39,920 bases of DNA from a virus, in UHGV virus genome UHGV-1299713. One strand, given 5' to 3'. A program made the position numbers and the translations under genes. The notes under the pieces were generated by a model, which was given only the letters and a program-made list of their open reading frames with translations, was not told the DNA's origin and did not search any database. Positions within the stretch are counted from its first letter, which is position 1, and each line of letters begins with the position of its first letter. This document shows, piece after piece, positions 19,785-25,238 of this stretch.

Positions 19785-20055
19785 TTGTTCATCATCGATT
19801 CAGCGGATGTCTTTCCATCAGTCCGCCACCACAAAGAATCTTTTTTGCCATAAGGCAGGAGGTTCATCTTTCAGTGGCTGCCAGTGTTATTTCCCCACTT
19901 ACTGGCTTGGGTTGCTTCGTGGTACTGCCGTAACTGGTGGTGCACAGATTTAGTTAAATCTGTTCTCGCCTGAACTATCTTTTACATACCCGGATTGTGG
20001 GGATGTAAATCACGGTTTCATTATCAAGCCCACCCGTAGATGGGCTTTGGAATGG

Positions 20056-20574
20056 TCACTTTGGCAGTCCGGGGATCGATATTTGCGCCTGCTGCTCAAG
20101 CCTTTCGATTCTTGCTATGAGTTGCGGTTTTTTGATCCTGCCCCAGCGGTTCAGCAAGCGTCCTGACATACTGGCAACATCCTTTTCCTTCATGAACTCC
20201 AGCATTAACTCGTTGTGCTCTCTTTGGTATGAGTGAGCCATCTCCATCAGCCTGTCACGCATCCAATTAAATGCTTTGATAAACGCCTCTTTGATGGCGG
20301 CAGCTTTTTTGCCGGTAAACGACATGATGATGTACATCGCGCCGTCTTTGGAAATTTCATATTCAACATACTGATTACCCTTGTGTTCATAGGTAACCCG
20401 CGAAAAGTTGCTGGTTAGAAATTCATCCGAACAGTCTAGCTTTTCGATTTTCTGAATGATGTGGTGATGCTGCTTGTCGAAGTAAGCTGCTACCTTGCGG
20501 GAGGTTGTGATCACGCGATCACCAGAAACAACCACCATGTCCCGGAAATCGAGATTAGCCAATTGATGATTCAT
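20056..20574 (-). CDS. rha: Rha-family phage regulatory protein (start at MNHQLANLDF, not the 253-aa ORF)
   Basis: Placement after the lysis genes as in P22; sequence reads as Rha-family (MNHQLANLDFRDMVVVSGDRVITTSRKVAAYFDKQHHHIIQKIEKL). Confidence 0.7.
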   Translation of the reverse strand: MNHQLANLDFRDMVVVSGDRVITTSRKVAAYFDKQHHHIIQKIEKLDCSDEFLTSNFSRVTYEHKGNQYVEYEISKDGAMYIIMSFTGKKAAAIKEAFIKAFNWMRDRLMEMAHSYQREHNELMLEFMKEKDVASMSGRLLNRWGRIKKPQLIARIERLEQQAQISIPGLPK

Positions 20575-20716
20575 AGCGTCTTTACCTTTTAGAAAGTGAG
20601 CCTGTCTCACAGAAAAGCCGCCCGAGAGAGGTCGCCACCTATAACGGCATTTCTCAGGCTCGCTTACTGAAAGGCTCTCGTTAATATGCGCGTGAGATGC
20701 GCTGTGAAATTCAGAT

Positions 20717-20741
20717 ATAAAAAGCCCCGCGAATGCGAGGC
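20717..20741 (-). terminator. Candidate terminator after the lysis cassette
   Basis: Minus-strand GCCUCGC-AUUC-GCGGGGC hairpin followed by UUUUUAUAU. Confidence 0.4.
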
Positions 20742-20916
20742 TAAATCCTGGTATTTGTAATGAACTGGCTCTTATCTCAACGCAGCCCCTTACCGCGCGC
20801 CAGATGCTCAATATCAAGCATCAGCAATGAGATGTTTAATCTGGATTCACTCCAGAAGTGATCACCACCCTGTCTACAGAGCCAGATGTGAAGGATGATG
20901 AGTAAAATTATCGCTA

Positions 20917-21384
20917 TCATCGAAGGCATTGCGTCCAGATGTATTCCTGAAGCGTTCTCAGTGCTGTTTGGTCGCGGATAATTCCGTCCCGGACACCGAG
21001 AACGTTTCGTCCAGCAACTGGAGAGAGTTCGACGGTGGCATCATTGCCCATGCCGGAGGCGCTGGAGGTTTCTGCTGAGGATGGCATAGGGCATTTTCCT
21101 TTGACGAACACCCGACCACCATTATCAAGCTTGCGCCGAAGAGCATCATTTTCAGCTTTCGCATCAGCTAACTCCTTCGTGTATTTAGCATCGAGTGCAT
21201 CAGCAGAACGCTGGCGCTGCTGCATGTCAGTAATGGTGGCAGTCGCCTGCTTCAGCTCTATGACTTTTTTATCGCGCTGCTCTTTGTAGGCGATTGCGTT
21301 ATCACGGTAATGATTAACCGCCCATGACAGACAGACGATGATACAGATAACCAGAGCAGAGATAATCGCGGTTACTCTGCTCAT
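20917..21384 (-). CDS. Rz: Spanin inner-membrane subunit Rz
   Basis: N-terminal ~75 aa near-identical to lambda Rz; C-terminus diverged. Confidence 0.85.
20958..21164 (-). CDS. Rz1: Spanin outer-membrane lipoprotein Rz1, embedded in Rz in the +1 frame
   Basis: Lipobox [16 protein letters not shown] and a Pro-rich stretch. Confidence 0.6.
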
Positions 21385-21857
21385 ACCTCAATCTCTCTGA
21401 CCGTTCCGCCTGCTTCTTTGAATTTTGCAATCAGACTGTCAGCCTTATGCTCGAACTGACCATAGCCAGCCCCCGGCAGTGAAGCCCAGATATTGCTGCA
21501 ACGGTCGATTGCCTGACGGATATCACCGCGATCAATCATGGGTAAAGCACCACGCTCTTTAATCTGCTGTAATGCCACAGCATCCTGGCTTTTCGGAGAG
21601 AAGTCTTTCAGGCCAAGCTGCTTACGATAGGCATCCCACCAACGGGAAAGAAGCTGGTAACGTCCGGCTGCTGTTGATTTGAGTTTTGGGTTTAGCGTGA
21701 CAAGTTTGCGAGGGTGATCGGAGTAATCAGTGAATAGCTCTCCGCCAACAATGACGTCATAACCATGATTTCTGGTTTTCTGCCGTCCGTTATCAGTTCC
21801 CTCTGACCACGCCAGCATATCGAGGAACGCCTTACGTTGATTATTGATTTCCACCAT
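21381..21857 (-). CDS. R: Endolysin, lambda R-type lytic transglycosylase
   Basis: 158 aa, near-identical to lambda R as recalled. Confidence 0.9.
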
Positions 21858-22164
21858 CTTCTACTCCGGCTTTTTTAGCAGCGAAGCGTTTGATAAGCGA
21901 ACCAATCGAGTCAGTACCGATGTAGCCGATGAACACGCTCGTTATATAAGCGAGATTGCTACTTAGTCCGGCGAAGTCGAGAAGGTCACGAATGAACCAG
22001 GCGATAATGGCGCACATCGTTGCGTCGATTACTGTTTTTGTAAACGCACCGCCATTATATCTGCCGCGAAGGTACGCCATTGCAAACGCAAGGATTGCCC
22101 CGATGCCTTGTTCCTTTGCCGCGAGAATGGCGGCTAACAGGTCATGTTTTTCTGGCATCTTCAT
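21841..22164 (-). CDS. S: Holin/antiholin S (dual start MKM)
   Basis: 107 aa, near-identical to lambda S, including the upstream GGGGGTAAGACATGAAGATG context. Confidence 0.9.
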
Positions 22165-22462
22165 GTCTTACCCCCAATAAGGGGATTTGCCCTATTTAAT
22201 TAGGAATAAGGTCGATTACTGATAGAACAAATCCAGGCTACTGTGTTTAGTAATCAGATTTGTTCGTGACCGATATGCACGGGCAAAACGGCAGGAGGTT
22301 GTTAGCGCAGCCTCTTGCCACCCGCTTTCACGAAGCCAGCCATTGCGCTGGTTTTCTTTTATGCAAAGCACACCGCACCGTAGCCACAGCGGATAAGGTG
22401 ATTATTTTTGTCTGTCTGGTATTTGGTTTGATGTGCTTTCAGAAAGGTCGTGCTTAAAACGC

Positions 22463-22491
22463 AAAAAGCCCCGAGCTATTAACTCAGGGCT
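22463..22491 (-). terminator. tR'-like intrinsic terminator about 30 to 60 nt downstream of PR'
   Basis: Minus-strand AGCCCUGAG-UUAAUAG-CUCGGGGCU then UUUUUGCGUUUU. Confidence 0.5.
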
Positions 22492-22526
22492 TTATTTAAC
22501 GAGTGCATTTATCCATCGTTGAGTCA

Positions 22527-22555
22527 AATTTACCCAATTTTATTCAATAAGTCAA
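22527..22555 (-). promoter_or_regulatory. Late promoter PR' with Q-utilisation region
   Basis: Minus strand TTGACTTATTGAATAAAATTGGGTAAATTTGACTCAACGATGG matches lambda PR' (-35 TTGACT, 17-nt spacer, -10 TAAATT, ACGAT pause element). Confidence 0.65.
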
Positions 22556-22597
22556 TATCATGCCGTTAATATGTTGCCATCCGTGGCAATCATGCTG

Positions 22598-23221
22598 CTA
22601 ACGTGTGACCGCATTCAAAATGTTGTCTGCGATTGACTCTTCTTTGTGGCATTGCACCACCAGAGCGTCATACAGTGGCTTAACAGTGCGTGACCAGGTG
22701 GGTTGAGTAAGGTTTGGGATTAGCATCGTCACAGCGCGATATGCTGCGCTTGCTGGCATCCTTGAATAGCCGACGCCTTTGCATCTTCCGCACTCTTTCT
22801 CAACAACTCTTCCCCACTGTTCTGTTTTTGCTATATCAACCGCACGACCTGTACCGTGGCAATCTCTGCATCTTGCGCCTGGCGTCGCGGCACTACGGCA
22901 ATAATCCGCATAAGCGAATGTTGCGAGCACTTGCAGTACCTTTGCCTTAGTATTTCCTTCGAGCTTTGCCACACCACGGTATTTCCCCGATACCTTGTGT
23001 GCAAATTGCATCAGATAGTTGATAGCCTTTTGTTTGTCGTTCTGGCTGAGTTCGTGCTTACCACAGAATGCAGCCATTCCGAATCCGGCTTGTGATTGCG
23101 CCATCCCCATAGCAGCCATCACATCAGTACCGGAAAGAGAGTCAGAAGCCGTGGCCCGTGGTGAGTCACTCATCATCGGGCTTTTTGGCGAATGAAATTT
23201 AGCTACGCTTTCGAGTCTCAT
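22598..23221 (-). CDS. Q: Late-gene antiterminator Q, lambda type
   Basis: 207 aa, essentially identical to lambda Q as recalled. Confidence 0.9.
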
Positions 23222-23883
23222 GCGCCTTCTCCCTGTACCTGAATCAATGTGAGGTTTCCGCAGAACACTGCGCCGGTATCGATATACATCTGGTTGGCAA
23301 ACTTGAGTGGTTTCACTGCTGGCGTATGACCAAAGATGAACGTGTCCGCTCCTTTGATTTCTTTCACGATCCCGTCTTGTGAGTTGCTGATTCGTTCGCG
23401 GTTCCAGATTACCTGCTGATGATCAACTGGCTTTCCGAACTCGTATTCATCACAGGGATAATCGGCGTGGCAGATGACGTATTTTTTATCTTTGCTCACC
23501 AGTTCGATGATTAACGGAAGTTCTTCTGCTTTATGGGCAAGAGCTTTAGCCAGAATTTCTTTGTCGTAATCGAGATTAAAGAACCAGCCACCGCCATTAA
23601 GCAGCCAGTGATTAACGTTTCCACGCTCTGATAAGCCATCAATCATCATTTGCTCATGGTTTCCACGTACAGCTCTGAACCAGGGGAATGTGATTAATTC
23701 CATACATTCGACGTTCTCTGTACCGCGATCAACCAAATCGCCAACCGAGATAAGCAGGTCTTTTTTGGTGTCGAATCCTATCGTCTCCAGTTTTTTCATC
23801 AGGTTCGTGTAGCATCCGTGCAGATCGCCAACTACCCAAATATTTCGGTATTTGCTGCCATCAATTTTTTCGTAATAGCGCAT
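23218..23883 (-). CDS. ninI: Ser/Thr protein phosphatase NinI (start at [12 protein letters not shown])
   Basis: Metallophosphatase motifs GDLHG, GDLVDRG, GNHE; matches lambda NinI. Confidence 0.85.
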
Positions 23884-24067
23884 CTCTTTCACTCCATCCG
23901 CGATGAACCATAAGAACGTCGTTGACGATGGCGTGCATTTTCCCGTCTTTATCATCAACGTATTTTCTGACCGTACCGCGACTACATTTCAGTCTGCGTG
24001 CTACTTCTGTCTGGTTTCCGTATGCTTCAACGAGCATGTCTGGAATGGTTTTTACTGAGAACGTCAT
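23861..24067 (-). CDS. ninH: NinH
   Basis: 68 aa, matches lambda NinH. Confidence 0.8.
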
Positions 24068-24669
24068 GCGGCCTCACTTCTGCTATTTCGCAGGTCTTTG
24101 AGTTTCTGTTGGTACTCTGCCTTGATCGCCTTGCACTCTTCGATAGTCCAGCGATGGCGGTTATGGTTTGATTCGATTTCGTCTACTGCTTCCTGCCCGA
24201 TGCGGCTAATCAGTTCGACGCGATACGGAACGAGATTTCCGCTTTTGTGCTGGTTGCACACCACGCATTGCTTGTGAATATTGCGTTCATCAAATCGGAG
24301 TTGAGGTGCCGCAGCAGTTGTCCGGTAATGTCCGGCATCCCACTGAGCAGACGTGAGCGTTCCGCACGAGATACATGGTAAGTCGCGGTCTCTTTCTCTG
24401 ATGAAGGCGTTTACTGCTTGTTGGGCTTGTTTAATCCAGTAACTGCGGGGCTTTAAGGCGAGTTTTCGAATCTTAAGTTTATCTTTCTGTTTCTGCTCCT
24501 CTCGTCGTCGTTTCTTCTCTGCTGCTTTTTCCGCTTTTTTTCGCTGTTTACTTTGTAGTTCGAGTGCTAACTGAGTTCCGTGTTCCGGGCAGCACCACCA
24601 CTGATTTGAGAATGCCGGGTGAAACCATTCCTTGCATATTTTGCATTTCCTTCGCGCTGGTTTAGCCAT
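24064..24669 (-). CDS. ninG: NinG (Rap) recombination-associated endonuclease
   Basis: 201 aa, Cys-rich N-terminus [16 protein letters not shown], matches lambda NinG. Confidence 0.85.
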
Positions 24670-24838
24670 CGTCTTCTTCCTCGTACATTGAGCTATTCGG
24701 ATCGCTCATCAGTTCTGCGCAGCAGTGCTCACACACGTGAACTTCCAGCACATGCAGCTTCTGACCGCAGTTAGCGCACGTTAAAGCTCGCTCGACGCTT
24801 TCTTTCTGGTATTGAAGGGATTGGGATGGACTAAGCAT
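24662..24838 (-). CDS. ninF: NinF (start at [10 protein letters not shown])
   Basis: Matches lambda NinF, CxxC pairs. Confidence 0.7.
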
Positions 24839-25238
24839 GGCTTTCACCATTAAAAAGTCGCTTGTAAGCATCAATGTCTCGTTTTGCTTCACCAAGCTTT
24901 CGTCTTAATTCCATGTTTTCTGATTCAAGCTTTTCCATGTCTTGTTGGTATCGATCGCGGTGTTCTTTCCATGCTTTTTGATACGCCTTCATGTATGTCG
25001 TATTGGCCTTTCTCTTTGCCTGACGAACTGCGTGGTGGTTTTTCACAAACCAGTCAGGGTCGTTAAATGCTGCTCTGGCGCATGTATACCAATAATTTGT
25101 TGCCTCCCTGTTTAGCCAATAAATACTGATAAATGGCAACTGTATCGACACCATTTTTCGTTGAGACTCTTTCTCGCCAAACATGTGTCCTTTTTTGATG
25201 CTAAGGCCAAATCCAGGTTGAATTAAAAGCATTGTCAT
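24831..25238 (-). CDS. NinX-like hypothetical protein inserted between ninE and ninF
   Basis: ATG overlaps the ninE stop (ATGA coupling); absent from lambda at this position; P22/HK97-type nin regions carry a ninX here (recalled, not verified). Confidence 0.55.

Follow-up and report, generated by a model that had tools for sequence, protein, structure and literature searches.

The interval between the late antiterminator gene Q and the holin gene S of virus genome UHGV-1299713 (22597..22165, minus strand) is, with a probability of about 0.9, the region from which a lambdoid prophage controls its late genes, in the configuration of P22, HK022 and HK97. Compared at the sequence level, the arrangement is one already known, a standard and widespread mosaic variant and not a local rearrangement. 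A promoter PR' and qut site of lambda type are followed by an early terminator, tR', and by a predicted leader RNA far shorter than the 6S RNA of lambda. This corrects a lambda-centred expectation, as the longer 6S RNA of lambda is one of two common variants. It carries little weight as a discovery, since the arrangement is annotated in P22 and found in dozens of sequenced phages. The window referred to below is the whole stretch of DNA analysed, 39,920 nt in length.

Layout of the Q-S region

The late genes around the Q-S region all lie on the minus strand, and 22165..22597 coincides exactly with the 433-nt intergenic interval between Q and S (Table 1). The Q protein is identical to lambda Q at 206 of 207 residues (99.5%) and matches Pfam PF03589 (E = 1e-57), which places a lambda-family Q directly upstream of PR'. 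S is the first late gene under the control of the switch. Taken whole, the window is a mosaic P22-like/IME10-like lambdoid prophage, and the best phage match to it covers 50% of 25 kb at 96.8% identity.

The plus strand inside Q has features of its own. The segments 22921..22953 and 23154..23186 hold an antisense promoter of Q (lambda PaQ / P22 a23) and a terminator. The CII/C1 box of this promoter, TTGCGAGCACTTGC, is the same as the annotated site of P22 and as lambda 44173..44186, and the terminator of the antisense transcript, GCCCGTGGTGAGTCACTCATCATCGGGCTTTTT, is also found in the window.

Table 1. Positions of the features in and around the Q-S interval, numbered as in the window.
Feature	Position	Strand	Basis
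Q antiterminator gene, 207 aa	22598..23221	-	ORF, lambda Q alignment, Pfam PF03589
PR' promoter: -35 TTGACT (22555..22550), 17-nt spacer, -10 TAAATT (22532..22527)	22527..22555	-	promoter scan
qut: Q-binding element in spacer and early transcribed segment	22504..22549	-	lambda alignment
Expected pause position, +16/+17	22505/22504	-	positions per PMC4005639
Predicted terminated leader RNA, ~58 nt, counterpart of lambda 6S	22463..22520	-	+1 by lambda/P22 identity, fold
Intrinsic terminator tR': hairpin 22493..22465, U-run 22467..22463, then GCGUUUU	22456..22493	-	terminator scan, folds
Segment without lambda counterpart, 162 nt, replacing lambda 44610..45014	22336..22497	-	blastn, junction alignments
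Conserved stem-loop, ~80 nt, right after tR'	22362..22441	-	per-class folds, RNAalifold
Leader upstream of S common with lambda, 171 nt at 98.5% identity	22165..22335	-	alignment
Holin S, lambda-type, dual start (ATG AAG ATG)	21841..22164	-	ORF, Pfam PF05106 (E = 2e-30)
R	21857..21381	-	ORF
Rz	21384..20917	-	ORF

The PR' promoter and the qut site

PR' is the sole promoter-like match of a consensus scan on the minus strand within 3 kb. Its -35 and -10 had been predicted to read as in lambda, and alignment finds them base-for-base identical. The identity starts at the Q stop codon, reaches +8 in the PR' transcript and takes in the -35, the lambda-identical spacer with the Q-binding element between -35 and -10, the -10 and the AACGAT element. 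The same site is annotated as PR' or Plate in the HK140 and P22 records. The start base of the transcript, +1 at 22520, corresponds to lambda 44587 and to the base marked as the late RNA 5' nucleotide in the P22 record.

AACGAT, the -10-like sigma70-binding inducer of the pause, occupies +1..+6 (22520..22515) as in lambda. Its position, that of the GGG discriminator-like sequence and that of the +16 pause are taken from PMC4005639, and the GGG sequence and the +17 base contribute to the pause (PMC4005639; PMC5001585). The original prediction had the pause element reading as in lambda, which stands for AACGAT, with a nuance further along, where the lambda GGG (+7..+9) reads GGA in the window and +17 is A, not G, both as in P22. 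In total, bases +9, +11, +15 and +17 are unlike lambda and identical to P22. The strength or position of the pause could therefore differ from lambda, although these bases are those of P22. The effect of NusA and nascent RNA length described in PMC4914094 concerns the position of the pause, not that of the terminator.

The terminator tR' and the predicted short leader RNA

A strong hairpin with a U-run had been anticipated roughly 30 to 60 nt downstream, and one is found at +28..+58. The hairpin (+28..+56) comprises 13 pairs, six of them G-C, and is the strongest match of the terminator scan. The U-run at +54..+58 consists of just five U before a G, with GCGUUUU next. With the 3' end taken from this U-run, the terminated RNA is predicted to be ~58 nt long, which agrees with the very short Q-controlled terminated leader that had been proposed. 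In this leader an A/U-rich linker joins a 5' stem (+1..+23) to the terminator hairpin, and a U-tail closes it. Taken as 65 nt, it folds at -23.3 kcal/mol (z = -4.6), with none of 200 shuffles folding as well, and the tR' hairpin alone reaches -19.1 kcal/mol versus -20.4 for lambda tR'.

The hairpin is maintained among relatives. Of 22 distinct variants, 21 retain it, with energies of -15 to -21 kcal/mol in per-sequence folds, which were used because the left arm of the terminator variants is out of register in the MAFFT alignment. Two-sided substitutions occur in the upper stem (GAG/CTC, GCA/TGC, GAGG/CCTC, GGG/CCT). The hairpin is also annotated as a terminator in the records of P22, Emek (rho-independent) and ES18.

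The first 23 nt of the transcript (22520..22498, minus strand) can form a 5' stem, AACGA.../...UCGUU. In a comparison that took in loci L065, L007 and L115, AATGAT-type leaders keep this stem by a double change from C3-G21 to U3-A21. Pair 4-20 is mismatched in a few relatives (Emek-like, mEp213-like), and support for the stem is weak.

The hairpin lies 105 nt past the Q stop codon, a location that would also suit a hairpin whose main task is to end unmodified rightward early transcription leaving Q, or a bidirectional terminator. The AAA 5' of the stem and the U-run 3' of it make weak activity in the reverse direction conceivable. However, only three T follow the stem on the opposite strand, and in the scan the hairpin scored as a terminator for the late strand alone. 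It moreover keeps a constant place with respect to the late promoters of several Q types, and P22 annotates it as the target of gp23, so that a main role for another transcript is very improbable. Ending early transcripts would be compatible with the role of the hairpin as tR' and does not exclude it.

Replacement of the lambda 6S module

The lambda reference used for comparison was NC_001416, with blastn and junction alignments. Positions 23300..22498 of the window correspond to lambda 43807..44609 at 97.3% identity. Past the mismatches at +9, +11, +15 and +17 the two are identical again over +18..+23, after which alignable lambda homology stops (22498 = lambda 44609). It is back at 22335 (= lambda 45015), and 22335..21750 corresponds to lambda 45015..45600 at 98.5% identity. 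Between these points 162 nt stand in for 405 nt of lambda, the part with the 6S body, with tR' and orf-64 and with the target of the LPR2 probe. The 6S body had been described as replaced and the sequence as returning to lambda-like context upstream of S, and the alignments agree on both counts. The recombination junction read from this sequence is genuine in so far as lambda homology has two mosaic boundaries, one after +23 and one at 22335, but the arrangement is neither new nor local.

The PR' promoter and 5' end are those of the lambda 6S RNA, with the same base at +1 and identity over +1..+8 and +18..+23. Homology to the 6S body and tR' of lambda (lambda 44610..44780) was not detected, as no alignment extends past +23. 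Counted from the same +1, the T-run of lambda falls at +188..+193, in agreement with the published 194-nt 6S RNA. Because the 162-nt module occupies the place of the lambda 405-nt module, the predicted leader is ~58 nt and not 194 nt.

This exchange also bears on the small RNAs described from the lambda late region. 6S and LPR2 of lambda are Hfq-bound (Silverman et al., bioRxiv 10.1101/2024.10.31.621285), and the probe targets of both are missing from the window. The LPR2 northern probe of Silverman et al. has its target at lambda 44816..44850, within the lambda segment that the window lacks. As short-leader phages are without both RNAs, no function proposed for 6S and LPR2 can be general to phages that rely on lambda Q. 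The lambda-shared segment upstream of S was considered as a candidate for PreS/LPR1 and rejected, the paper placing PreS in the early left operon.

Distribution among phages and E. coli genomes

The 433-nt interval is 94-98% identical to the corresponding region of HK140, ECP1, HK544, Gally, HK106, mEp234, mEp213, mEp043, Sf101, HK542, mEpX1, HK022, mEpX2, HK97 and Emek, the last of these a P22-like Salmonella phage. At least 80% of the interval is covered by 64 phage records. A PR' promoter and a lambda-like qut are annotated in the records of several relatives, HK140 among them. The 162-nt segment taken separately has matches in 99 phage records, among them that of P22, where the identity is 75%.

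For P22 the evidence consists of GenBank annotation and a secondary citation. Annotated features of the P22 record include 'P late or P R'', the 5' nucleotide of the late RNA and a qut-like site, and the homologous hairpin at +31..+59 is labelled 't late or t R'', antiterminated by the gene 23 protein so that late transcription can be complete. Sy et al. (PMC7547250) cite short antitermination-regulated late-promoter RNAs of phages 21, phi80, 82 and P22. A six-way alignment finds the window and P22 collinear over the full Q-to-holin interval, from gene 23 to gene 13. The Q proteins of lambda and P22 are interchangeable (PMC8022706).

The short arrangement is also frequent in bacterial genomes. 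Out of 5426 complete E. coli genomes, 261 (about 5%) carry the 162-nt module at a coverage of at least 80%, and 217 carry the lambda 405-nt module, many of these being laboratory lysogens. The short leader is thus at least as common in natural E. coli prophages as the lambda 194-nt 6S configuration (261 versus 217). In IMG/VR, seven contigs have a lambda-identical PR'/qut fused to this leader exactly as in the window.

The original prediction saw in this region a recombination junction behind a very short Q-dependent leader. Taken further, an event peculiar to this genome would have exchanged the 6S body for a novel leader of unusual shortness. Sharp breaks of homology after +23 and at 22335 speak for such an event when lambda alone is the reference, as does the PR'/Q-binding spacer, which is the exact lambda allele where most HK/P22 relatives differ by one or two bases. 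This reading is already contradicted by the recurrence of the same arrangement in the 64 records, of the module in the 99 records and 261 E. coli genomes, and of the identical promoter-leader combination in the seven contigs. The homologous short leader is annotated in P22, and the lambda form, with its 217 genomes, is not the commoner one. A leader newly created here is accordingly scarcely tenable against a 433-nt interval shared at 94-98% identity with many sequenced phages. Alignment with characterised lambdoid phages instead returns the known P22/HK022 late region, the outcome that had been named as speaking against a new junction, given that the P22 hairpin is annotated as tlate/tR' and the short late-promoter RNA of P22 is cited (PMC7547250).

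The same terminator module behind different Q types

The invariant block beginning with the U-run, TTTTTGCGTTTTAAGCACGNCNTTTCTGAAAGC, was used to scan IMG/VR. The U-run together with the block GCGTTTTAAGCACGNCNTTTCTGAAAGC (window 22467..22435, minus strand) occurs in at least 120 IMG/VR contigs (loci L007-L126). Several Q/promoter cassettes stand ahead of this same terminator. They include the lambda-Q type, the ES18 type (254-259 aa), two further cassettes with proteins of 254 and 273-274 aa and the early transcribed region AATGATGGAGTAGTGCAGTCATT, and another with a 211-aa protein without a Pfam match. All four of the diverged proteins of 254-274 aa that were tested belong to PF03589.

In all classes but one, 120-134 nt separate the Q stop codon from the U-run, the exception being L084 with 242 nt; in L088 the upstream region is rearranged. 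This near-constant distance across classes indicates that a short leader is the rule in the group. Mosaic boundaries sit immediately before the terminator stem.

These cassettes also inform on whether the ~58-nt PR' leader might additionally act in trans as a small RNA in lysogens, like StxS and as has been suspected of lambda 6S. The leader has a typical shape for such an RNA, with a 5' stem, the single-stranded A/U-rich linker UAAAUAAA, a terminator hairpin and a U-tail. StxS has exactly such an origin and regulates rpoS and stx1 (PMC7547250), and the Hfq binding of lambda 6S and LPR2 (bioRxiv 10.1101/2024.10.31.621285) points the same way. However, merely ~8 nt are predicted to be single-stranded, and +1..+23 is already constrained at the DNA level by qut. 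A conserved seed is also made less likely by the 5' part of the leader, which has nothing in common from one Q type to another even where the terminator is the same. Searches of 20000..25000 against Rfam at E <= 1 assigned the leader to no family and gave a chance snoU85 match only, and its sequence was not found in a literature search. Full-text literature searches likewise returned neither the terminator sequence nor the tandem late terminators of Luk and Szybalski. A trans-acting role of the leader, over and above its being a by-product of the switch, is unlikely.

The structured leader downstream of tR'

The 356-nt leader has a fold with z = -5.2, and RNAalifold over 11 diverse leaders gives 48 pairs, eight of them with compensatory double changes. 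The most prominent element is the ~80-nt stem-loop that follows tR' directly, in which a long-range helix, GAAAGCACAUC / GGUGUGCUUUG, surrounds a C-rich, G-poor loop. It is the minimum-energy fold of every sequence class, though the sequences of the arms differ. Its closing helix has double changes at four of ten pairs in a MAFFT alignment that is blind to structure. The C/G ratio is 2-2.7 at +61..+135 in the loop, with the same found in P22. The stem-loop matches no Rfam family. Speculatively, Rho could load at such a C-rich loop and so back up tR', or the loop could belong to some other RNA element.

Further elements lie closer to S. An invariant UUCGUGA/UCACGAA helix encloses a hairpin at 22319..22290, which covaries too, and a stem-loop is positioned just ahead of the S start codons (CCCC 22184..22181 / GGGG 22175..22172). 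The segment GGAUUUGUUC (22234..22225, minus strand) can pair upstream with GAACAAAUC (22265..22257) in the fold of the window, or alternatively with (G)CAAAUCC at 22190..22183, adjoining the stem-loop before the dual start of S. In this structural model the two pairings would be mutually exclusive and might affect translation of the holin. The upstream and middle arms of the GGAUUUGUUC pairing flank a variable insert in some relatives.

On the late strand the conserved AAAAGAAAA comes ahead of a hairpin at 22355..22332 (CCAGC GCAATG GCTGG). This hairpin has the shape of an intrinsic terminator solely on the plus strand, antisense to the late operon, and a consensus scan of 22165..22335 found no plus-strand promoter that would feed it. 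P22, ES18 and others keep the hairpin with covarying arms (CCAGC/GCTGG, CCCAG/CTGGG, CCCGC/GCGGG). Lambda homology restarts at the base directly after it.

From tR' to the holin gene the leader has a mosaic make-up of its own. Among 97 distinct leaders, breakpoints recur at ~30, ~130 and ~270 nt past the U-run. Some phages have a given 3' part of the leader fused to lambda-type S, and others have that same part fused to a holin gene whose sequence differs.

Two open reading frames in the leader were considered as genes and rejected. A 51-aa ORF (22371..22216, minus strand), labelled 'hypothetical protein' in HK140, is broken in 40 of 40 homologues below 90% identity. Among 57 close relatives, 30 have an interruption in the other frame, a 65-aa ORF (22260..22457, plus strand) that PGAP calls in a 60-aa version in E. 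coli W46. Neither has a Pfam match. The ORFs of the leader given as hypothetical proteins in HK140, ECP1, Sf101 and E. coli W46 are probably annotation artefacts.

The ~300-nt leader past tR' is conserved behind different Q types and before at least two holin types and might act in cis as a regulatory RNA not yet characterised, marked by the 80-nt covarying stem-loop, the hairpin with a conserved A-run and the GGAUUUGUUC segment. Possible roles are those of a Rho-dependent back-up terminator in the absence of Q or of a timer of holin translation. That either the short leader is a functional Hfq-dependent small RNA or the downstream leader a cis-regulatory RNA is, on balance, rather unlikely. 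The covarying leader past tR' is a modest lead on the silencing of lysis genes in lysogens.

Proposed mechanism

The working of the switch can be sketched from the mechanisms of lambda and P22. PR' would be constitutive. As transcription begins, sigma70 would rebind at AACGAT and the polymerase would pause at about +16. Without Q, transcription would terminate at tR' to give the ~58-nt RNA, leaving the lysis and morphogenesis genes silent in the lysogen. Once Q accumulates, it would bind between -35 and -10 and load onto the sigma70-paused complex. Polymerase carrying Q and NusA would then resist tR' and later terminators, so that S, R, Rz and the morphogenetic genes are transcribed. By homology with P22, Q-dependent readthrough of tR' is to be expected in this prophage.

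Comparison with known systems

Lambda has a Q that is 99.5% identical, shares the regulatory logic and differs at no base between the Q stop and +8. The systems differ in the terminator, as the lambda U-run at +188..+193 yields a 194-nt RNA, whereas the U-run at +54..+58 in the window is predicted to yield one of ~58 nt.

The coliphages HK022, HK97, HK140, HK544 and the mEp group have the same Q-S interval over 433 nt, with lambda-type S, R and Rz downstream, and differ by point changes and small indels only. The window carries the Q-binding spacer of lambda exactly, whereas most HK/mEp phages have one or two mismatches in it. The annotations of mEp213 and mEp043 give the lambda qut sequence and state no mismatch.

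P22 shares with the window a lambda-type Q (gp23), the same -35, -10 and RNA start base, and identity over +1..+27. A homologous terminator hairpin follows at ~+30..+59 and the leader is collinear up to the holin gene. In contrast, the 162-nt module is only 75% identical, the Q-binding spacer differs by two bases (TTTTTGAATAAAG versus TTATTGAATAAAA), and the last part of the leader and the sequence of the holin gene differ (gene 13 versus lambda-type S).

StxS of Shiga-toxin phages is likewise a short constitutive PR' transcript, ended at tR' and 74 nt in length (PMC7547250). It belongs to another Q/qut type than that of the window, however, and the likeness drawn between the two leaders is one of origin and size.
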